Shown: positions 4,599-64,000 of the stretch, in pieces
Layout of the letters: each line of letters opens with the position of its first letter
How positions within the stretch are numbered: the stretch's first letter is position 1
Source of the DNA: Escherichia phage EAWsc9
Strand: one strand, 5' to 3'
DNA length: 64,000 bases
Sequence record: PQ341120.1
Notes under the pieces: model-generated
What the model saw: the letters and a program-made list of their open reading frames with translations, nothing else
Database searches by the model: none
What the model was told of the DNA's origin: nothing
Made by a program: the position numbers and the translations under genes

Positions 4599-6173
4599 AT
4601 GGCAGGTTTTAACACAATACTAAATTTTCTTAAGCCTTGGGCTAAAGAAGATGAACAAGAATATAAGCAACAAGAAAAAAATAATTTAGAGTCAATGACC
4701 GGGCCGAAGTTTGACGATGGGGCTCGCGAAATTGAGTCACAAGAACAAAACGTCCCGTATAATGCATTGATGCAACAGATGTTCGGGAGTAATGAACCTG
4801 AAGTAAAAAATACCAGGGAATTAATTGACACATACCGCAACTTACTAAATAATTATGAAGTTGATAACGCGGTGCAAGAAATTGTGTCTGATGCTATCGT
4901 TTTTGAAGACGGTAAAGATGTTGTAGCTCTTAACCTTGATGCTACCGAATTTAGTCAGAAAATTAAAGACCGAATCCTCGAAGAATTCACGGAAGTTAAT
5001 AACCTCCTTAATTTCGAGCGTAAAGGTTCTGACCACTTTAAACGTTGGTATGTGGATTCTCGAATTTTCTTCCACAAAATTATCAACCCAGCAAAACTTA
5101 AAGATGGAGTTCAAGAACTTCGTCGCCTTGACCCAAGACAAATCCAGTTCATCCGTGAAATCGTTACACGCATGGAAAATGGCACAAAAATTGTCGACGG
5201 TTACAGAGAATATTTTGTATACGATACTGGCCATGAAAGTTATTGTGCCGATGGTCGTATATATGAAGCGGGTACTAAAATAAAAATTCCTCGTGCGGCG
5301 ATTGTATATGCGCATTCTGGATTACTCGATTGCTGTGGTAAGAATATCATCGGATACTTACAACGAGCAATTAAACCTGCAAACCAATTAAAACTATTAG
5401 AAGATGCTTTAGTCATTTATCGTATAACTCGTGCACCAGACCGCCGAGTCTTTTATATCGATACCGGGAATATGCCGTCTCGTAAAGCAGCAGCACACAT
5501 GCAACATATTATGAATACGATGAAAAACCGTGTCGTATATGATGCAACCACGGGTAAAATCAAAAACCAACAGCACAACATGTCTATGACAGAAGACTAT
5601 TGGTTGCAACGTCGTGATGGTAAAGCAGTCACCGAAGTTGATACTCTCCCGGGTGCGCAAGGCATGTCGGATATGGACGATGTTCGCTGGTTTAAGAACA
5701 ACCTATATCAGGCTCTCCGAATTCCATTATCTCGTATCCCTAATGACCAAAACAGCGGCGTTATGTTTGATGCGGGCGCGACAATTACTCGCGATGAATT
5801 GAATTTCTCTAAATGGATTAGGCAGCTACAGAATAAATTTGAAGAAGTTTTCCTCGACCCACTTAAAACCAACCTTATCCTGAAAAAAATTATTTCAGAA
5901 GAGGAATGGGAAAAGGAACTAAATAATATTAAAGTTACGTTCAACCGTGATAGCTATTTCACCGAAATGAAAGACGCAGAAATCATGGAACGCAGAATCA
6001 ATATGCTAACGATGGCTGAACCGTTTATCGGTAAATATATTTCGCATCAAACGGCTATGAAGGACTTCCTCCAGATGTCTGATGAAGAAATTAATCAAGA
6101 AGCTAAGCAAATTGAATTGGAGTCCAAAGAGGCTCGTTTCCAAAACCCTGAAGAAGAAGAAGAGGATTTCTAA
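4599..6173 (+). CDS. 20: Portal vertex protein, 524 aa
   Basis: Same length as T4 gp20 and high similarity (e.g. [19 protein letters not shown]); acidic C-terminus EEEEEDF. Confidence 0.97.
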
Positions 6174-6424
6174 TGGATGATTTATTTGAAGCCATTAAAT
6201 CAAACGACCTCGTAGCCGTTCGCAAATATTTTGCTGAAAACATTGGCCCAGTATGCGGTAGTTTGATTGAAGAACGTAAGATTGAAATTGCACGTTCCAT
6301 CATGATTGAAGGCGAAGAGCCTAAAGAAGATGATGAAGACGGTAAAGCAGAAAAGAAAGACAAAAAAGAATCTGATGACGCTGACGAAGGCGACGATGAT
6401 GAAGATGATGAGGACGATGAATAA
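6173..6424 (+). CDS. 67: Prohead core protein, 83 aa, with polyacidic C-terminal tail
   Basis: Position between 20 and 68; TAATG overlap with gene 20 stop; tail [16 protein letters not shown]. Confidence 0.8.
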
Positions 6425-6852
6425 TGTTTATTATCCCTGATGATTACGAATTAACTCTTGAAAACATTGAAAGTGTTTCCGAAGAAGCTCAGGGACAATT
6501 TGATTCATTATCTGAAGCCTTAGAAAAAGACGATATAAATATTATTGTAGAAAACATGTTTGCAGCCGGTGAATATGAAAAAGCAACGGTTATCGGCGCG
6601 CTGAATGAAGGTGTTCAGCTTAACGAATTTATCGTTAAACATGTATCGTCTCGCGGCGAGTTAACCCGCACAAAAGACCTAGCTACTCGTAAGCGTAATG
6701 CTTTCCAAACAACTGGTCTTTCTAAAGCTAAACGTCGTCAAATTGCCCGTCTGGCTACTAAAACAAAAAGAGCAAACCCATCTACGCAAATCAGAGCAGA
6801 GCGCAAGCGCAAAAAAGCTCGAGCTAAGCGTAAAGCATTCGGACTTGATTAA
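6424..6852 (+). CDS. 68: Prohead core protein, 142 aa
   Basis: Synteny and size (T4 gp68 about 141 aa); basic C-terminal region; stop/start overlap with neighbours. Confidence 0.8.
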
Positions 6853-28843: not shown

Positions 28844-28875
28844 TAAAAAAGGGCCGAAGCCCTTTTGTTATTTTA
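28844..28875 (-). terminator. Terminator after the DNA ligase gene
   Basis: GGGCTTCGGCCC followed by TTTTTT on the minus strand, immediately before the alt late promoter. Confidence 0.65.
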
Positions 28876-30424
28876 ACCCGGTCTTTGACCAGTCGCCAAA
28901 TACATCTTCGAATGTGTCTGCATGGTCTTTATCGAAACGGAACCCTTTAATAATCGGCAGGAACAATGCAACCGTATTATCTTTACGAGTCTCGGAAGTC
29001 AACCAACCATTGCATTCACAGTCGGCAATCATTCCAACCAATTCACCTTTACGTGCTTTAACCATCAAGGCTTCACGGTCCATTTCATGACGCTCCTCAA
29101 TCGGAATAGTAACCCATTTTTTGGTTTTCTTATCTTTGACTTGAGTTGTGTCTTTAAAACCAGAACCACAGTTATTTGTAATCTTACCACAAGAAGAACG
29201 AAGCACCACACCGCCAATCTTATTCGGGTCTTTATCGTGCTCGTAATATCCAATGATTTCCATTGCAATATCAATTACTTCTTTGAACTTATATAGGTTC
29301 TTTGAGCGCTTGTTTTCCCAAATCGATGCCATATTTTTAAGGATAATACCTTCAAGGCCTTCATCTACATATTTCTTATAGATAACCTTCGCTTCATCGA
29401 GATTGTTAACAACATGGTTTTCAATCAGAATCATGCGGTCGAAACCATGCAGCACCACGTTATCTGCAATCATCTTTTCCAGAACAGCAAAACGCACATC
29501 GTATTTCAACGGATTGAGAATCTTAACATCAGAATAGACTTCAATCAGTGGAACATAATCCCAAACCTGGAATTTCATACAAGAAGCTTCTGCTGCAGAA
29601 ATAGTTCCTTTCAATGATTTGTTTGCCATGCCATTTGAAAAGGTTCTTGATTCTGCAAATTCTTTTGCTTTGCTATCGGCAAATTCTTTTGCCTTGCTAA
29701 GCTTAGGCATATCGTCAAAAAGGAAGCCCAAACCGTCATTCTGGGGAGCTACTTTCTGTTCATGGTATACTAACTCGCCATCAATTAAAACGCCCTCAGG
29801 ATGTCTCTCGCGCGCTTCACGGGTAGCTTCAATCAATTCCTTTTTAAGGAGGTCAAGCTTAAGGTATTCGTTACCAGCTCGGGATAGCAATCGAACATCA
29901 TCCAACTCATCGCCACGAACTTCTGCAAAACACCGAGCACCATCGGCTTTCAATTGTGCAAATGCCGGGAACTTAATGTTCTTAGCAATACCAGCTTCAT
30001 CATAAGAAGAAGCGAGCATCTGCGGTTGTTCAGGAATTAAACCTTTCCAAACCTTATTTGCAATTGATACAGACGCACCACATTCCAGGTCACGCATCAT
30101 CACACGCCGCAAGACTTCAACATCGGCCTTTTTGCCATCTGCAATATAACCAGATAATTCCTCGATTGCCGCATTACCTGTTAATTTGCGAGAGGCTAAT
30201 GTGAATTCGATAAAGTCAAGCATATCATCGATATTCAACATGCCAAAGCTTTGAGTCGTTGCCCCAGGTTTTGGCCATTTCTTTATATAGAACTGGATGC
30301 CTTTGGAATATGTCAAACGATACACGCGTTTAAGGGTTTCATTATCAGAATACGATTCCAAGATAGCTTGTTTCTCTTTAGTAGAATCGGTTGCAGCAAT
30401 TTCATTTAAAATATCTAAAATCAT
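28868..30424 (-). CDS. 30: ATP-dependent DNA ligase, 518 aa
   Basis: MIL.ILNEIA...KQKQAILE, FAQLKADGARCF (KxDG adenylation motif) as in T4 ligase; AAGAGGTGA RBS. Confidence 0.96.
   Translation of the reverse strand: MILDILNEIAATDSTKEKQAILESYSDNETLKRVYRLTYSKGIQFYIKKWPKPGATTQSFGMLNIDDMLDFIEFTLASRKLTGNAAIEELSGYIADGKKADVEVLRRVMMRDLECGASVSIANKVWKGLIPEQPQMLASSYDEAGIAKNIKFPAFAQLKADGARCFAEVRGDELDDVRLLSRAGNEYLKLDLLKKELIEATREARERHPEGVLIDGELVYHEQKVAPQNDGLGFLFDDMPKLSKAKEFADSKAKEFAESRTFSNGMANKSLKGTISAAEASCMKFQVWDYVPLIEVYSDVKILNPLKYDVRFAVLEKMIADNVVLHGFDRMILIENHVVNNLDEAKVIYKKYVDEGLEGIILKNMASIWENKRSKNLYKFKEVIDIAMEIIGYYEHDKDPNKIGGVVLRSSCGKITNNCGSGFKDTTQVKDKKTKKWVTIPIEERHEMDREALMVKARKGELVGMIADCECNGWLTSETRKDNTVALFLPIIKGFRFDKDHADTFEDVFGDWSKTGLK
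29641..29690. repeat. Imperfect 24-bp tandem duplication inside the DNA ligase gene
   Basis: GCAAATTCTTTTGC(T/C)TTGCTA repeated; encodes KAKEFADS-KAKEFAES. Confidence 0.6.
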
Positions 30425-30434
30425 TAATCACCTC

Positions 30435-30713
30435 TTAGTCGTTGACTCTATTATATGCCACGTCTTCCAAAAGCAAATCCAGCCGCTTATGATAAGTGAA
30501 CACAAATTTAGTTGCCCCGTCTGGTTTCATTTTGGTCATGAAGTGAATATAGATAAATCCTTGCTCAACGCATTCACGCCAAACGGGGTTATCTTTAGCC
30601 GGATTAATATCAAACGAGTAATTATGATTCACATGACGAATAAACTGATTAACATGACCGTAATCCATCGTGGTAGTTGGACCACGGTCAGAAATAGTAT
30701 GAACGACAAACAT
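30435..30713 (-). CDS. Hypothetical protein, about 92 aa
   Basis: ATG one codon inside the TTG-initiated track ORF; overlaps the upstream stop (TGATG); T4 30.x region. Confidence 0.6.
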   Translation of the reverse strand: MFVVHTISDRGPTTTMDYGHVNQFIRHVNHNYSFDINPAKDNPVWRECVEQGFIYIHFMTKMKPDGATKFVFTYHKRLDLLLEDVAYNRVND

Positions 30714-31537
30714 CAATTACCCCCTTGGCCACCGGTCGGTTGATTGTACCAGTATTCAATACCAGTACCTACACGCTGGCCATATTGATATGGATATGCT
30801 GGATTATATCCAGGAGTCCACGGTTGGCCAGGCTGCCAGCCTTGCTGCATTTGTTGTTGAAGGCGTCGAGTTTCACGAAACAGCTCTTCCAGTTTACGGA
30901 GTTCGTCTGGAGTGAATTCTGGTTTGACCGGTTCATCTTTGTGTTTCAGTTTAAGCTGTCCAGCAACATCGTCCCAATTAAAAACTTTGGAAGCTGTTTT
31001 AGGAATAGCATCACGTTCGCCGCGGGCCATCCAATAAACCGGAACCTCGAGAATTTCACTCGCATGGTCGCAATGGTGTGCAAGGTCATCAATATAACAA
31101 ATGACATTATATTTGTCTTTTGCCTTCTGAAACAAATCCTCTTTAGAGGCTGTATGACCACACATCATCACTTCTTTAAATGCCCCAGGGAACAAAGCAT
31201 TCAGGTTGAATTGACGATTCAGGCGAGCATCAATAGAATCACCCAGGGCTGTAACAGCCACAAAATCATATTGCTCTTTGAGGTTATTAATAACCCTTAA
31301 TGCATCCGCATAAGGAGACAAATAGCGAATAAAGTCTGAACAGTTATATTTTTCAATTAACTGCGCGCCTAACTCTTCATCACAATTGAAAAGTTTACCA
31401 GGGGTCACAAATTTTTCATCCTGAATCATCTTAAGGATATGTTCCAGGGGTAAATTATATTTTTGGGCGAAATAAGGCAAGCCAGACTGCCATGACAAAC
31501 ATACGCCATCAATATCTGTTAAAATAACGGGTTTCAT
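30713..31537 (-). CDS. HAD-superfamily phosphatase-like protein with Q/P/G/Y-rich C-terminal tail, 274 aa
   Basis: N-terminal motif ILTDIDGV (HAD motif I DxDGx) and later YIDD; C-terminal low-complexity tail QQQMQQGWQPGQPWTPGYNPAYPYQYGQ...GGQGGN. Confidence 0.7.
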   Translation of the reverse strand: MKPVILTDIDGVCLSWQSGLPYFAQKYNLPLEHILKMIQDEKFVTPGKLFNCDEELGAQLIEKYNCSDFIRYLSPYADALRVINNLKEQYDFVAVTALGDSIDARLNRQFNLNALFPGAFKEVMMCGHTASKEDLFQKAKDKYNVICYIDDLAHHCDHASEILEVPVYWMARGERDAIPKTASKVFNWDDVAGQLKLKHKDEPVKPEFTPDELRKLEELFRETRRLQQQMQQGWQPGQPWTPGYNPAYPYQYGQRVGTGIEYWYNQPTGGQGGN

Positions 31538-31992
31538 AATGCATCTCTCAATTGGTTAAGTATGTCAATAAATTCTTGTTCAGTCAATATTGTATCATGA
31601 ACAGTAAGGTGGCTCGCCATCGAATGCTTTAAAACTTTGCCTTTTGTAGCTTGTAATGCGTCGCGGAATCCTTTGTTTTGGAGCGCTGCTTCAAAATATG
31701 CATTTGTATACAACTCTTTCCATGCTGCAGAGTATCTTGAAAAGGGAATTCCAAGCCAGAAAAGCGTCCCACGGTCCGCAGCTCTTGCATAAGCTCTTCC
31801 ACTTTGCTGGGCGGCCAATCCGGACATCCCAAATATACGTTTTTGTTGTTCATGATTTCTCACCTTGCACCCTTGTAGGAAGCCTTCAAGACCCCCAAAC
31901 TGGATACCCTCCATAACAAAAGGCCATTTGGCAAAGTTACTTAATGCACATGATGGCCACGGGAAATTGCTTCTTATTTCTAACTCAGACAT
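31534..31992 (-). CDS. Hypothetical protein (start uncertain; track ORF extends to 32067)
   Basis: Internal ATG gives a short overlap with the upstream gene; the longer ORF would add a hydrophobic N-terminus and overlap its neighbour by about 83 nt. Confidence 0.5.
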   Translation of the reverse strand: MSELEIRSNFPWPSCALSNFAKWPFVMEGIQFGGLEGFLQGCKVRNHEQQKRIFGMSGLAAQQSGRAYARAADRGTLFWLGIPFSRYSAAWKELYTNAYFEAALQNKGFRDALQATKGKVLKHSMASHLTVHDTILTEQEFIDILNQLRDAL

Positions 31993-32158
31993 CTTTGACA
32001 CTGATAATATCCACATCAGCCCAATGACCATAACCAGGTAGACGGTCTTTAATAGATAATCCGCCATCAGATTTCAGCATTTTAATTGTTTTAGTATATG
32101 GTTCAATATTTCGGGCCCATGGACTTACATCAGTCACGCGATAAGTAACTTCGACCAT
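31985..32158 (-). CDS. Hypothetical small protein (start uncertain; track ORF begins with GTG at 32197)
   Basis: In-frame ATG with GGGA RBS; the GTG alternative has poor spacing to GAGGA. Confidence 0.4.
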   Translation of the reverse strand: MVEVTYRVTDVSPWARNIEPYTKTIKMLKSDGGLSIKDRLPGYGHWADVDIISVKDV

Positions 32159-33564: not shown

Positions 33565-33595
33565 CATTATGCACTGGACCAACCCTGTTGTAAAC
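33565..33595 (-). promoter_or_regulatory. Early promoter for the 33156..33524 gene
   Basis: TTTACA, 17 nt, CATAAT, then leader GATTCCATACTGAG...GGAGAATAAAATG. Confidence 0.45.
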
Positions 33596-33609: not shown

Positions 33610-33635
33610 TAAAAAAGGGACTCCGAAGAGTCCCT
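33610..33635 (-). terminator. Terminator after the 53-aa basic ORF
   Basis: GGGACTC-TTCG-GAGTCCC followed by TTTTTTATTTT on the minus strand. Confidence 0.65.
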
Positions 33636-51902: not shown

Positions 51903-52571
51903 TCAAAGTGCTTGAAGCGTTATTTGACAGTTTTTAACGGTCTCGATGAACAATTTACGAGCTTCAAGAGAATCTATATTTAAGATTTTCTTATAGGCAT
52001 TTAGTTTGGTTGAATACTTTTCCCAAACCAAGTCGTTAGTCTGCTCATCATGTTTATTTATAATATCTAAAAATGAATCAAGCAAACAAAACGTTTCAAA
52101 TGAGATAACATTCGATTGGAGAAGTTTGAAAATATAACTTGTGTTTACTTTAGTATTATACTCGAAAATCTCTTGAAGCGATTTGACTTCGACTTTCTTA
52201 CTGAAGTAATAGATATTCTTTATATCATCTTCGTATACTTGTTTAATTCTTTTAAGTCTGCCAATGTATTCTCGATAAAATATCAGAGCATCGGCATCGC
52301 TTATATCACCTATCCATGCATCCTGGTTCGCGACCAGGTTTGACATGAATATTAACGTTAATTCTTTGAGAGTGTACTTATCACTAAGCTTTTCGAAAAA
52401 ATACTTATCGCGACGTTTTTGATAAGCACTGTCGGAGATTCGCATGGTCCAGTTATATTTGATAATATCATAACGACCCGAAAAATGCTGTTTGATGGAT
52501 AAGTATAGTTGATATACTGATTTACCATTTATATATCGGTTGTTATTTGGAGGCATGCGAATCGTAATCAT
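51903..52571 (-). CDS. 59: Helicase loading protein, 222 aa
   Basis: DGKSVY.LYL.IKQH..GKYD.IKYNW, NLVANQDAWIGDISDADAL.FYREYIGRLK as in T4 gp59; ATGA overlap with gene 33. Confidence 0.93.
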   Translation of the reverse strand: MITIRMPPNNNRYINGKSVYQLYLSIKQHFSGRYDIIKYNWTMRISDSAYQKRRDKYFFEKLSDKYTLKELTLIFMSNLVANQDAWIGDISDADALIFYREYIGRLKRIKQVYEDDIKNIYYFSKKVEVKSLQEIFEYNTKVNTSYIFKLLQSNVISFETFCLLDSFLDIINKHDEQTNDLVWEKYSTKLNAYKKILNIDSLEARKLFIETVKNCQITLQAL

Positions 52572-52861
52572 AACAAAAAGTCCAGCGTATTAGTTTTCTG
52601 TGTACGAGACATACTCGGACGAAGCAGGTTATCATCATAGGCTTCGTTCATAATCTTATCAATGATTCCCGCAGGAATGTATCGCGCAAAATTACCTTCA
52701 GGAATTCCACGTTCTTCCAACCAGGCAGTCGCAGCTTCCAGATAAGACATTTCAGTTGACTCAACCATGGCTTCAATATCAAGCCCGTTTTGCTGCTTAC
52801 TAATCGCCCCGGAAGGCGATTCAGTTTTCTGTGTATCGAAATTAACTAAAGAGGACATCAT
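52568..52861 (-). CDS. 33: Late transcription accessory protein, about 97 aa
   Basis: Synteny between dsbA and 59; internal ATG with GGAG RBS chosen (the track ORF extends further into dsbA). Confidence 0.75.
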   Translation of the reverse strand: MMSSLVNFDTQKTESPSGAISKQQNGLDIEAMVESTEMSYLEAATAWLEERGIPEGNFARYIPAGIIDKIMNEAYDDNLLRPSMSRTQKTNTLDFLL

Positions 52862-53119: not shown

Positions 53120-54064
53120 TTAATAAAATTCAGCAATATTTGCAGTTAGTTTAGACAGACCAGACTTAACAAAGTAAGGATAAACTTTACTTTTGGCTGG
53201 GATAACGTAGTTATTATATCGTTCTAAGATTGAAGCGGATATTTCCGTTGGGATAAAGTCCATATCAATCAACAATTGGTTTTCACAGAATCTATTATAT
53301 TGCTCTTCTGTTAAAAGCGTTTTCAAAACGTCATGGTCGTAATAGTTGAGTGCAATTTGTTCAAGCTCAGCAGCGCGGGTCGGTGGAGTGCGTTCACCTT
53401 CTTCACGAGTGTAATAAAAATCACCGCGAACCTTGATGCTTGACACGTTATCTTTTTTGTCGCCTTTAACAACCTTTGTCACGCAATCCATAAGAGCATC
53501 GCCTGATTTAGTTTTGACATATTTTTTCTGCATCGGTGACCATTGTTTCACCCCAGGGAATTTATGTAACTGGGTAAAGTCGCCATCTGAAGAAACAATC
53601 ATAACCGGATGCCCGAGACCAGTGAGCAACTTCGTTAATACTGCAATATGGTCGTCAGCCTCAATTTTATCCATATTCATCACGATGTAAGGCATATGTT
53701 TTTCCATTTCATCAATGATGATATGCATGGCAGCGTGTAGACCTTCCCAATCAAATTGTGACTCTTCACGAGCTTTTGCACGGTTTTTCTTATAATAATA
53801 AGATTTCGTGCGTCGCCAATAACCATTCTTCGAATTATCAACACAAATAATTGGGACTGTATAACCGAGCTTTTTAAACTGTACAATGTTTTTTCTGATA
53901 GAGTTCAGAACCAGATGTCTGGTCATTGCAGTTGTTACTTTCGGAAAGCCTGCGTCTTTGCCGAATTCCTGGAAGGCTGCTGCCATGATAAGCTGGCTAA
54001 AATCGAGTAACAGAAAACCATCTTTTTGACGGTCTTCTTCAGGGAGTAAAAAATCTAAATTCAT
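53120..54064 (-). CDS. rnh: RNase H (5'-3' exonuclease / flap endonuclease), 314 aa
   Basis: GYWRR...YYYKKNR.KAREES.WDWEG, ADDHIAVL, SSDGDFTQLHK as in T4 RNase H. Confidence 0.95.
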   Translation of the reverse strand: MNLDFLLPEEDRQKDGFLLLDFSQLIMAAAFQEFGKDAGFPKVTTAMTRHLVLNSIRKNIVQFKKLGYTVPIICVDNSKNGYWRRTKSYYYKKNRAKAREESQFDWEGLHAAMHIIIDEMEKHMPYIVMNMDKIEADDHIAVLTKLLTGLGHPVMIVSSDGDFTQLHKFPGVKQWSPMQKKYVKTKSGDALMDCVTKVVKGDKKDNVSSIKVRGDFYYTREEGERTPPTRAAELEQIALNYYDHDVLKTLLTEEQYNRFCENQLLIDMDFIPTEISASILERYNNYVIPAKSKVYPYFVKSGLSKLTANIAEFY

Positions 54065-62900: not shown

Positions 62901-63309
62901 AATTATTTCTCATGGCCATTTAGTTCAGGCGAATGACAGTTATTCCACATATGTCCGTGATGTTTATGTCCGTTCTGATATTCGCGTTAAAAAAGACCTC
63001 GTTAAATTTGAAAATGCTTCTCAGAAGCTTTCTAAAATTAACGGTTACACTTATATGCAGAAGCGTGGAACGGATGAAGAAGGTAATCAGAAATGGGAAC
63101 CTAACGCTGGTTTAATTGCTCAAGAAGTTCAAGCTATTTTACCTGAATTGGTTGAAGGTGACCCTAATGGTGAAGCTTTACTTCGTTTAAACTATAACGG
63201 TGTAATTGGTTTAAATACAGCTGCAATCAATGAGCACACTGCAGAAATAGCAGAATTGAAATCAGAGATTGAAGAACTTAAAGCATTAATTAAATCATTG
63301 TTAAAATAA
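59980..63309 (+). CDS. 37: Long tail fibre distal subunit, large, 1109 aa, with C-terminal chaperone-like domain
   Basis: Conserved gp37 N-terminus ([16 protein letters not shown]...[11 protein letters not shown]); C-terminal about 120 aa resembles an intramolecular chaperone / autoproteolytic domain with a terminal coiled coil. Confidence 0.93.
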
Positions 63310-63312
63310 TAA

Positions 63313-63330
63313 GAGGGGCTTCGGCCCCTT
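63313..63330 (+). terminator. GC hairpin between genes 37 and 38
   Basis: GGGGC-TTCG-GCCCC followed by the gene 38 RBS GGAGG; no T-run. Confidence 0.4.
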
Positions 63331-63340
63331 GGAGGTTTAT

Positions 63341-64000
63341 ATGGCAGTAGCAGGACCGTGGATAGGAACTTCTGCATTAGCTAATACAGGACAAAATTGG
63401 ATGGGCGGCGCTGCCCAACGATTGAGAATGGGTGCTCCGTTTTGGATGAGTAATATGGTAGGTCGGTCTGTTGAAGTAATTCACACACTTGGGGCCGACC
63501 ATAACTTTAATGGGCAATGGTTTAGAGACCGTTGTTTTGAAGCCGGTGCTGCACCTATTGTGTTTAACATCACCGGTGATTTAGTATCTTATACCAAAGA
63601 TGTTCCGTTGTTCTTTATGTACGGCGATACCCCTAATGAATACGTTACTTTGAATATTCACGGCGGGGTCCATATGTGGGGCCGTGGTGGTAACGGTGGG
63701 ACCCGTGTTTGGGTAGCGGGTACAAATGGTGGTGATGTAATTCAAAACGACATTGGGGGCAGACTCCGTATTTGGAACTATGGTGTTATAGCTTCAGGTG
63801 GCGGTGGTGGTGCCGGGTGTGCTTCAAATAACTCTTGGCTTGAGGCGGGTACAGCCGGTGGCGGCGGTGGTAGACCATATGGATTAGGTGGTACTAATGG
63901 TGCCGTAAACCCAGGTGGCAACGCTAGTTATACCGGGCCAGGTGGCGGTGGCAGCTTTGGTGGACAGTGGGGCGGTGGTAATGGCGGCGACGCGGGCGGT
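63341..64000 (+). CDS. 38: Tail fibre adhesin gp38 (T2/T6 type, glycine-rich motifs), 5' partial, continues past window end
   Basis: Hand-translated: conserved N-terminal gp37-attachment region ([36 protein letters not shown]) followed by poly-Gly motifs ([26 protein letters not shown]). Confidence 0.85.

Follow-up and report, generated by a model that had tools for sequence, protein, structure and literature searches.

Gene 30.2 of Escherichia phage EAWsc9 encodes a predicted HAD-type phosphatase related to the NT5C nucleotidases, with a motif-bearing C-terminal tail

The NT5C nucleotidases (PF06941), among them the mammalian cytosolic enzyme cdN (NT5C; PDB entries 2jao and 2i7d), the mammalian mitochondrial enzyme mdN (NT5M; 1mh9 and 1q92) and an S. 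epidermidis homolog (3bwv), have a Rossmannoid core of the HAD type and a C1 cap made of four helices, which is small. Here we describe a protein of similar predicted build, gp30.2, which is encoded on the minus strand of a 64,000-nucleotide stretch of DNA from Escherichia phage EAWsc9 (sequence record PQ341120.1), called the window throughout. NT5C proteins are the best Foldseek and hidden Markov model (HMM) matches of gp30.2, at an identity of just 17–21%, and the two share the DxDGV...SGL motif I region and an aromatic residue at position +8 from the nucleophile. They differ at the C-terminus: the matched NT5C structures, with chains of 168–200 residues, have no disordered extension comparable to that of gp30.2.

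The wider gp30.2 family, PHROG 420 (PHA02597 '30.2' in the NCBI CDD), includes the T4 protein and homologs of ≈200 amino acids in phiM12, PA5oct-like phages and Atu_ph07, with E-values from 1e-189 to 1e-16. The catalytic residues are the same in all of these, and the position next to the DNA ligase gene is shared within the Tevenvirinae; the homologs in distant phages sit near phoH, not ligase. In the large PA5oct-like and phiM12 myoviruses (loci L012, 4001-5364; L015, 2992-4116; L016, 2995-4447), the tail-less 30.2/NT5C-like gene adjoins a phoH-like gene or lies one gene away from it, an arrangement that recurs in two lineages. Most PHROG 420 members are tail-less, and a Q/G-rich tail is found in Gapriverviruses only. 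A second T4 phosphatase, the 3'-phosphatase domain of PseT (1ltq and 5uj0), is not orthologous to gp30.2. The polynucleotide kinase (PNK) phosphatase is capless and acts on the 3' ends of nucleic acids, whereas gp30.2 has a predicted C1 cap, which by standard HAD reasoning points to small-molecule substrates rather than nucleic-acid ends.

The 274-residue open reading frame (ORF) considered here is the ortholog of T4 early gene 30.2, in a Gaprivervirus (VR7/SP18-like) phage. Its product is 100% identical to that of Escherichia phage ECML-359, 97% identical to that of vB_EcoM_VR7 (genus Gaprivervirus) and ≈66% identical to the T4 protein. By tblastn, it was detected in 1,438 of 50,697 phage records.

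The catalytic core and its relation to the NT5C family

The gp30.2 protein begins with MKPVILTDIDGV, which contains the HAD motif I (D8-x-D10-G-V), and the sequence Y148-I-D150-D151 is found further on. An earlier note, made from the DNA letters alone, had pointed to both of these motifs, and the translation of the ORF matches the sequence quoted there exactly. In an alignment of 112 relatives, D8, D10, K132, D150 and D151 are invariant and T96 is present in 97%, which together make up the four-motif HAD signature; the Asp at the second position after the nucleophile is the mark of phosphotransferases. Even in 90 relatives that are only 21–35% identical to gp30.2, D8, D10, K132 and D151 remain invariant. 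The cap holds the invariant residues W16, F43, F50, Y64, N65, S67, Y72 and Y76.

An AlphaFold2 model of gp30.2 had a mean predicted local distance difference test score (pLDDT) of 86.7, with the core (residues 1–199) above 90. A Foldseek search of the PDB with this model gave 121 matches at E ≤ 1e-3, and all 50 matches listed were HAD proteins, headed by the mouse cytosolic 5'(3')-deoxyribonucleotidase 2jao (2.1e-8). The motifs and the model thus indicate that gp30.2 has the Rossmannoid core, motif I and motifs II–IV of the HAD superfamily. The earlier note had proposed a HAD-like phosphatase or nucleotidase, a proposal that would have been refuted had HAD-fold support been lacking; that support is present, in the form of the catalytic motifs, the predicted fold and, as described next, intermediate sequences that pass the NT5C threshold.

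Direct sequence searches were nearly empty. There was no match for gp30.2 itself in Pfam, even at E ≤ 1, or in NCBIfam, and the protein does not reach the gathering cutoff of NT5C (24.8 bits, PF06941). A profile built from the close family and run against the sequences in the PDB found a nucleotidase at E = 0.29 only, and 25 of the 112 orthologs matched Pfam NT5C, weakly (best E = 0.002). For this reason, we turned to structure prediction and to a profile of wider scope. When 1.84 billion representatives were searched exhaustively with an HMM, this returned 1,125 clusters at E ≤ 1e-3, those listed being mostly ≈190–215 residues long. Among the 90 members at 21–35% identity, 39 matched Pfam NT5C (best E = 4.2e-10), 18 matched Hydrolase and 18 matched HAD_2. 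One protein, P0318, matches the gp30.2 profile with E = 3.4e-20 and also passes the NT5C cutoff over its full length (26.2 versus 24.8 bits). The wide-family profile, in turn, gave a full-length match to 3bwv (E = 2.2e-6) and a match to the mitochondrial deoxyribonucleotidase (mdN, dNT-2) at about 2e-3. These matches argue that gp30.2 is homologous to bona fide NT5C members, beyond the shared superfamily fold. Judged by these profiles, gp30.2 belongs near the NT5C lineage as a diverged relation, one that falls below the family's own threshold.

The aromatic residues of the cap provide a further point of comparison. The invariant W16, eight residues after D8, aligns with the Phe of 'DGVLADFESGL' in mouse cdN (2jao), and it is at least 90% conserved in the distant gp30.2 relatives. 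In the cdN and mdN structures, the Phe at this position stacks on the base, and W16 may have the same role.

The distant relatives that we checked are viral, belonging to PA5oct-like phages, phiM12 and Atu_ph07, and the neighbours in BFVD are annotated as nucleotidases. The phiM12 annotation carries both '30.2 [PHA02597]' and 'NT5C [pfam06941]', and scattered records name orthologs 'hydrolase', '5' nucleotidase' or 'HAD-superfamily hydrolase'. Some annotators had seen the HAD/NT5C identity before. PHROGs labels the family 'unknown function'. Longer family members were examined for domain fusions that might hint at a partner (Rosetta-stone analysis), and they contained no informative domains.

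The C-terminal tail and its conserved motif

The extension that follows the core starts with a charged amphipathic helix, which is predicted with good confidence: the pLDDT values of its 10-residue blocks were 92 and 86 in one model and 85 and 77 in the other. In the tail proper, residues 226–274, Q accounts for 22%, G for 20% and P and Y for 12% each, and just two residues are charged. Its Shannon entropy in 20-residue windows is 2.8–3.2 bits, compared to 3.3–3.7 bits in the core. Among 17,254 49-residue windows drawn from the 85 longest non-overlapping ORF segments of the window, the tail had the highest Q+G+P+Y fraction (0.67), and its entropy was the 132nd lowest, within the lowest 1%. The compositional bias that the earlier note had described is real, although it extends over ≈49 residues rather than the ≈60 proposed, and the charged helix in front of it is not of low complexity.

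Two AlphaFold2 models were made, one from a deep alignment and one from an alignment in which the tails were cleanly aligned, and the pLDDT of the tail was 34–63 across them, suggesting disorder. The run with the cleanly aligned tails gave values of 34–49. Since the scores were low with both alignments, the models lend no support to the idea that the tail docks on its own core.

The length of the sequence past residue 192 is bimodal, with 20 residues or fewer in 47 of the 112 members and at least 50 residues in 56. Relative to the cores, Trp is 3.0 times and Pro 2.6 times as frequent in the long tails. The T4 tail is rich in N, H, P, W and Y, and Q/G richness is absent from the tails of Enterobacter phage CC31 and the Klebsiella phages. 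Between gp30.2 and its VR7 counterpart, the synonymous substitution rate (dS) is 0.34 in the core and 0.39 in the tail, while the ratio of nonsynonymous to synonymous rates (dN/dS) amounts to 0.013 for the core but 0.064 for the tail. In Tequatroviruses, dN/dS is 0.1–0.6 in the tail versus 0–0.05 in the core, and HPY/PY repeats show indels. Synonymous and nonsynonymous codon changes in the tail number 3 and 0 relative to ECML-359, 14 and 3 relative to SP18, and 10 and 1 relative to DK-13. By these measures, the tail is under purifying selection and evolves faster than the core.

Near its end, the tail carries a conserved short linear motif, which in gp30.2 includes the sequence GIEYWY followed by N-Q-P-T. 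We scanned 116 sequences, consisting of the window protein and 115 cluster representatives, and found the ending [IVL]-E-[YW]-[LWY]-x-x-[QR]-P-T, usually after G-x-G, in 18 of them, among which are T4, VR7 and relatives in phages of Klebsiella and Citrobacter. The tails of CC31 and of Cronobacter phages have the same motif ending. In the tail alignment, A2, the E of the motif is invariant and G, Y, Q, P and T are at least 90% conserved; in the six-frame translation of the window, the motif occurs once. Upstream of it there are conserved Trp and Pro residues, and the stretches between these elements diverge freely. The Trp/Pro-rich segment that starts at W234 corresponds to 'WRTPGFNPY' in T4 and to W-x-x-P ... 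P-W/Y segments in other genera. Genera with core identities of only ≈50% still retain the motif, although their linkers have diverged and differ in length. A conserved motif and conserved Trp and Pro positions within a diverging linker fit a tether that is disordered and carries a short linear motif for docking, not a prion-like domain driven by composition.

The presence and length of the tail across relatives, a comparison that the earlier note had proposed, showed the tail to be in frame and motif-bearing in T4, VR7, CC31 and the Klebsiella and Cronobacter phages. An origin of the tail by frameshift relative to the orthologs, which that note had raised as a possible objection, is rejected in view of the in-frame conserved motif and the purifying selection.

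The motif does not appear to be a widespread module: a tail-profile search of 5.8 billion proteins gave just P0116, a split-off T4-type tail ORF described below, and an unrelated protein, P0117. The SonariX match to the tail motif was another gp30.2. P0117 is an 81-residue protein with an unrelated helical N-terminus that ends in GTGTGIEYLKRQPTSK / PFLTPGTGTGIEYLKRQPTSK, a near-exact copy of the Klebsiella/Enterobacter type of gp30.2 tail end, which hints that the motif is portable. It is encoded on two metagenomic contigs of 1.5–1.7 kb (L001, 643-888; L002, 947-1192), which had no match in the phage collection. A separate oddity among the cluster representatives is the 220-residue P0003, the C-terminus of which reads ...SRSEEHTSELQSQN. 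This looks to us like a translated Illumina adapter, and would then reflect a contaminated contig end and not a real short-tailed variant.

Probable substrate, possible docking partner and alternative explanations

Taking these results together, we put roughly even weight on the explanation that gp30.2 is an active, Mg2+-dependent HAD phosphomonoesterase with a C1 cap, an offshoot of NT5C, and has a flexible tether that bears a docking motif. The protein would be a divergent viral branch of the NT5C 5'(3')-deoxyribonucleotidase lineage, and would most likely dephosphorylate a nucleoside monophosphate or a similar small phosphoester early in infection, and thereby trim or bias the pool of nucleotides. 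This enzyme of ≈195 residues may, in Tevenvirinae-type phages, have gained an amphipathic helix, a disordered and variable linker rich in Pro, Trp and Tyr, and a lineage-specific short linear motif. The terminal motif would dock the enzyme onto another macromolecule and so localize its activity.

Several observations weigh against this explanation. T4 salvages deoxynucleoside monophosphates (dNMPs) from host DNA, so that a general dNMP phosphatase looks wasteful. A search of the literature on gene 30.2 found nothing experimental specific to the gene, and our analysis did not identify a docking partner for the tail. Some 40% of the T4-like phage orthologs lack a tail, as do nearly all members of the wider family, which means that the tail cannot be required for catalysis, and other genera carry unrelated tail ends (LRAYY, LRASF and DYVLLN). 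In Escherichia phage 107 (L008, 3' end of the coding sequence at 201-1055), GDAGYFNRLTSGSG is found in place of the motif GGIEYLYNRPTG, with the downstream sequence DNIFQGAF retained; it looks as if a local frameshift, later compensated, had destroyed the motif while leaving the rest of the gene intact. In a T4-like metagenomic contig (L003, 1135-1979), 30.2 is split by a one-base difference in a T-run into a 210-residue HAD core and a 64-residue tail ORF (P0116), either through faulty assembly or because this is a natural variant in which a frameshift separates the tail. The disrupted and split tails suggest that the tail may be dispensable.

As to the substrate, the phosphatase might act on a small phosphoester other than the ordinary (d)NMPs, for example a ribose- or ADP-ribose-derived product made jointly with the NADAR-like gp30.3 and the ADP-ribosyltransferase Alt, or a phosphosugar or phosphoglycolate type of compound. 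Relatives of gp30.3 (PF08010) also match the NADAR/YbiA family (PF08719) and alt is nearby, which invites the idea of an ADP-ribose-related substrate. However, CC31 has 30.2 without 30.3, and the distant phages have an unrelated upstream gene, with the HAD gene paired with phoH; the 30.3–30.2 pairing is not obligatory, and an obligatory functional link based on it is ruled out. Furthermore, the significant sequence-level links of gp30.2 are to NT5C-type nucleotidases only, and its predicted cap is rich in invariant aromatic residues, as expected for base stacking. We consider such a different substrate fairly unlikely.

A more specific proposal for the tail is that it is the tail of a sliding-clamp client, with a variable linker and an epitope similar to a sliding-clamp-binding motif (SCBM), which would tether the nucleotidase to the gp45 'toolbelt'. 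The epitopes of SCBMs are hydrophobic and acidic, are carried on divergent linkers of variable length and are functional when internal, and one patch on gp45 is common to the polymerase, ligase, gp33 and gp55 (PMC2988020, PMC7892883). The SCBMs accepted in VR7 are those of gp55 (...GDLDFLYGTSI), gp33 (...NTLDFLL) and gp43 (...TLFDMFDF), and RNase H starts with MNLDFLL. The gp55, gp33 and gp43 tails share with gp30.2 a divergent linker of variable length and a short epitope of hydrophobic, acidic and aromatic residues near the C-terminus, the IEY[LW]Y of some lineages being comparable to LDFLY; GIEYWY here and GIEYLY in T4 are conservative substitutions of LDFLY at each position. The pattern [ILVM][DE][FYW][LMW][FYWL] matches only three times in the 21,334-residue proteome of the window, at the C-terminus of gp33, the N-terminus of RNase H and the tail of gp30.2, against 1.2 matches expected by chance, and all three lie within 10 residues of a terminus. 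In addition, 30.2 is encoded two genes from the clamp-binding DNA ligase.

Against this stands that the pattern was widened after the motif had been seen, and that an SCBM-like pattern is present in just 6 of 58 long-tailed relatives. The fifth position in gp30.2 proteins is often non-hydrophobic: the class found in CC31 and the Klebsiella and Enterobacter phages has a polar residue there (IEYLN/T/K/D), yet the SCBM of CC31 gp33 is still TLDFLL. The conserved Q-P-T that follows the motif has no counterpart in SCBMs, and the motif lies 6–15 residues from the end. The reading of the tail as that of a clamp client is unlikely on balance, and the sliding clamp, judged from the motif comparison, has a similarly low probability of being the partner, but is the most concrete candidate for it. 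Somewhat more doubtful still is the extended version, in which an SCBM-like motif on a disordered tether would bring gp30.2, as a nucleotidase, to the replisome or the late-transcription machinery of T4. It would then be a so far unrecognized small-molecule-metabolizing client of gp45, encoded together with the clamp-binding ligase, that edits the nucleotide pool locally at the fork, and Tevenvirinae would, more generally, have repeatedly added different docking peptides to one metabolic enzyme.

In the window, RNase H has at its start (~54044..54064, minus strand) the same LDFLL with which gp33 ends (...TNTLDFLL; 52571..52600, minus strand). The N-terminus of CC31 RNase H reads MSNLNCLF instead.

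Alternatively, the extension could serve for self-association, with the helix at residues 210–232 as an oligomerization or packing element, or for peripheral membrane attachment by a Trp/Tyr/Pro-rich interfacial anchor. The helix is confidently predicted, with block pLDDT values of 77–92, and enrichment in Trp and Pro, as seen in the long tails, is typical of interfacial peptides. The tail is, however, highly polar (Q, N, G and T) and without a hydrophobic stretch, and neither function would explain the acidic-aromatic motif or the Q-P-T. We regard these possibilities as improbable.

The earlier note had likened the tail to prion-like or phase-separating segments, in which a low-complexity domain would drive condensation or aggregation. 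The composition of the last 49 residues, in which Q, G, P and Y account for 67%, 18% are aromatic 'stickers' and two are charged, together with the predicted disorder, is in keeping with this, and the T4 tail is likewise aromatic-rich and low in charge. Nevertheless, prion-like domains typically comprise at least 60 residues rich in Q, N, G, S and Y, with a conserved composition, whereas the biased stretch here is ≈49 residues long, its Q-run and G-richness are confined to one genus, and many family members have no tail at all. What is preserved is a specific motif and the W and P positions, not mere composition, and the within-genus dN/dS of 0.06 indicates sequence-specific constraint. We did not find this suggestion to be supported, and consider it very improbable, although the tail may still be a sticker-rich disordered region.

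Finally, the tail might be read-through without a function, an artefact of a frameshift or a consequence of constraint at the DNA level, such as an embedded promoter for 30.1 and ligase. This is hardly credible and was largely refuted by the substitution data. In its favour are the hypervariable length and sequence between genera, the many tail-less orthologs, the frameshifted or disrupted variants and a sigma-70-like site (30830..30803) within the DNA that encodes the tail. However, all the way from T4 to the Klebsiella phages, frame and motif are kept; the tail changes at synonymous sites as fast as the core does, while its nonsynonymous sites are held (27 synonymous versus 4 nonsynonymous codon changes in total); and promoter-like matches occur at chance level (18 versus 14.6 ± 4.2), which speaks against the embedded promoter.

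Genomic neighbourhood and implications

The features of the locus are collected in Table 1. The genes are coupled, the ATG of 30.2 overlapping the stop codon of 30.3 (ATGA) and its TGA overlapping the ATG of 30.1. In the annotated and near-identical phage VR7, the gene order is alt, 30 (DNA ligase), 30.1, 30.2, 30.3 ... 30.9, rIII, 31, cd, pseT, alc, rnlA, denA and nrdB. With ligase, cd and pseT around 30.2, this order bears out the nucleotide-metabolism neighbourhood that had been proposed from the EAWsc9 sequence alone.

Table 1. Coordinates of gene 30.2, its parts and neighbouring features in the window
Feature	Coordinates	Strand	Basis or remarks
T4 gene 30.2 ortholog, complete coding sequence (274 amino acids + stop codon, included in the coordinates)	30713..31537	-	PHROG 420 match, E = 1e-78
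HAD-fold catalytic core with C1 helical cap (predicted), residues 1–199	30941..31537	-	
HAD motif I, D8-I-D10-G-V (nucleophile Asp and Asp+2 general acid/base)	31502..31516	-	D8 and D10 invariant in 112 close and 90 distant relatives
Cap module, residues 14–77, helices 16–26, 32–40, 46–49 and 54–65, between motifs I and II	31307..31498	-	
HAD motif II, V-A-V-T96-A	31247..31261	-	T96 in 97% of sequences
HAD motif III lysine, K132	31142..31144	-	Invariant
HAD motif IV, Y-I-D150-D151 (Mg2+ ligands)	31085..31096	-	D150 and D151 invariant in close relatives; D151 also in distant ones
Charged amphipathic helix, residues 210–232, PDELRKLEELFRETRRLQQQMQQ, first element of the extension	30842..30910	-	AlphaFold2 helix in both models
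Q/G/P/Y-rich, low-charge, predicted-disordered tail, residues 226–274	30716..30862	-	Composition, entropy, pLDDT, dN/dS
Trp/Pro-rich segment, W234-QPGQP-W240-TPGYNP	30800..30838	-	W and P nearly invariant in the A2 alignment of tails
Conserved short linear motif, G257-T-G-I-E-Y-W-Y-N-Q-P-T268, six residues from the C-terminus	30734..30769	-	Tail alignment A2
Gene 30.3, upstream, translationally coupled, 152 amino acids, PF08010 (Phage_30_3)	31534..31992	-	Relatives also match NADAR/YbiA PF08719
Gene 30.1, downstream, coupled, 92 amino acids, DUF3045	30435..30713	-	
DNA ligase gp30, after 30.1	28868..30424	-	
Strong intrinsic-terminator-like hairpin, 8 bp stem and T-run, just downstream of 30.9	33616..33635	-	
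Sigma-70-like promoter, 10/12 match, after the hairpin, ahead of 30.8	33566..33594	-	

The terminator-like hairpin and the promoter-like site suggest that the block from 30.8 to 30 forms one transcription unit, with the pair upstream of 30.8 as its likely boundary. The mechanically called ORF of 30.3 reaches position 32067, which is 75 nucleotides upstream of the start annotated for the 152-residue protein in VR7. Several gp30.3 relatives match PF08719 (NADAR/YbiA, DUF1768) and are named YbiA-like by JGI; these matches suggest that gp30.3 may be an enzyme that processes ADP-ribose or N-glycosides, encoded three genes from the Alt ADP-ribosyltransferase. In CC31 (L019, 3087-4349), 30.2 adjoins the ligase gene, and 30.3 and 30.1 are replaced by small unrelated ORFs.

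Two further segments of the window stood out by composition. An ORF that runs past the end of the window contains an extremely glycine-rich segment (63305..64000, plus strand), which to us recalls the glycine-rich motifs of T-even tail-fibre adhesins (gp38-like). The lowest-entropy 'ORF' segment, at 6106..6450 on the minus strand, has a poly-Ser run and is probably an antisense or non-coding reading of a gene on the opposite strand, not a protein.

Overall, the novelty is modest: what we describe is a variant architecture of a known kind of enzyme in a well-known, uncharacterized T4 gene, and amounts to an informed annotation with a hypothesis attached. Its interest lies in the fact that 30.2, although conserved in over 1,400 records of sequenced T4-like phages, is a gene to which no function has been assigned. 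Its placement near NT5C predicts a directly testable activity in the best-studied phage system of nucleotide metabolism, where a dNMP-degrading enzyme would lie outside the textbook pathway. The tail offers a clean natural example of a metabolic enzyme that appears to have gained a disordered tether which evolves fast and bears a conserved motif for docking, for which the tail-less, alternative-tail and disrupted-tail variants found in nature are ready controls. If the partner were the sliding clamp or another component of the replisome, this would be relevant to the old proposal of nucleotide channelling to the replication fork in T4.

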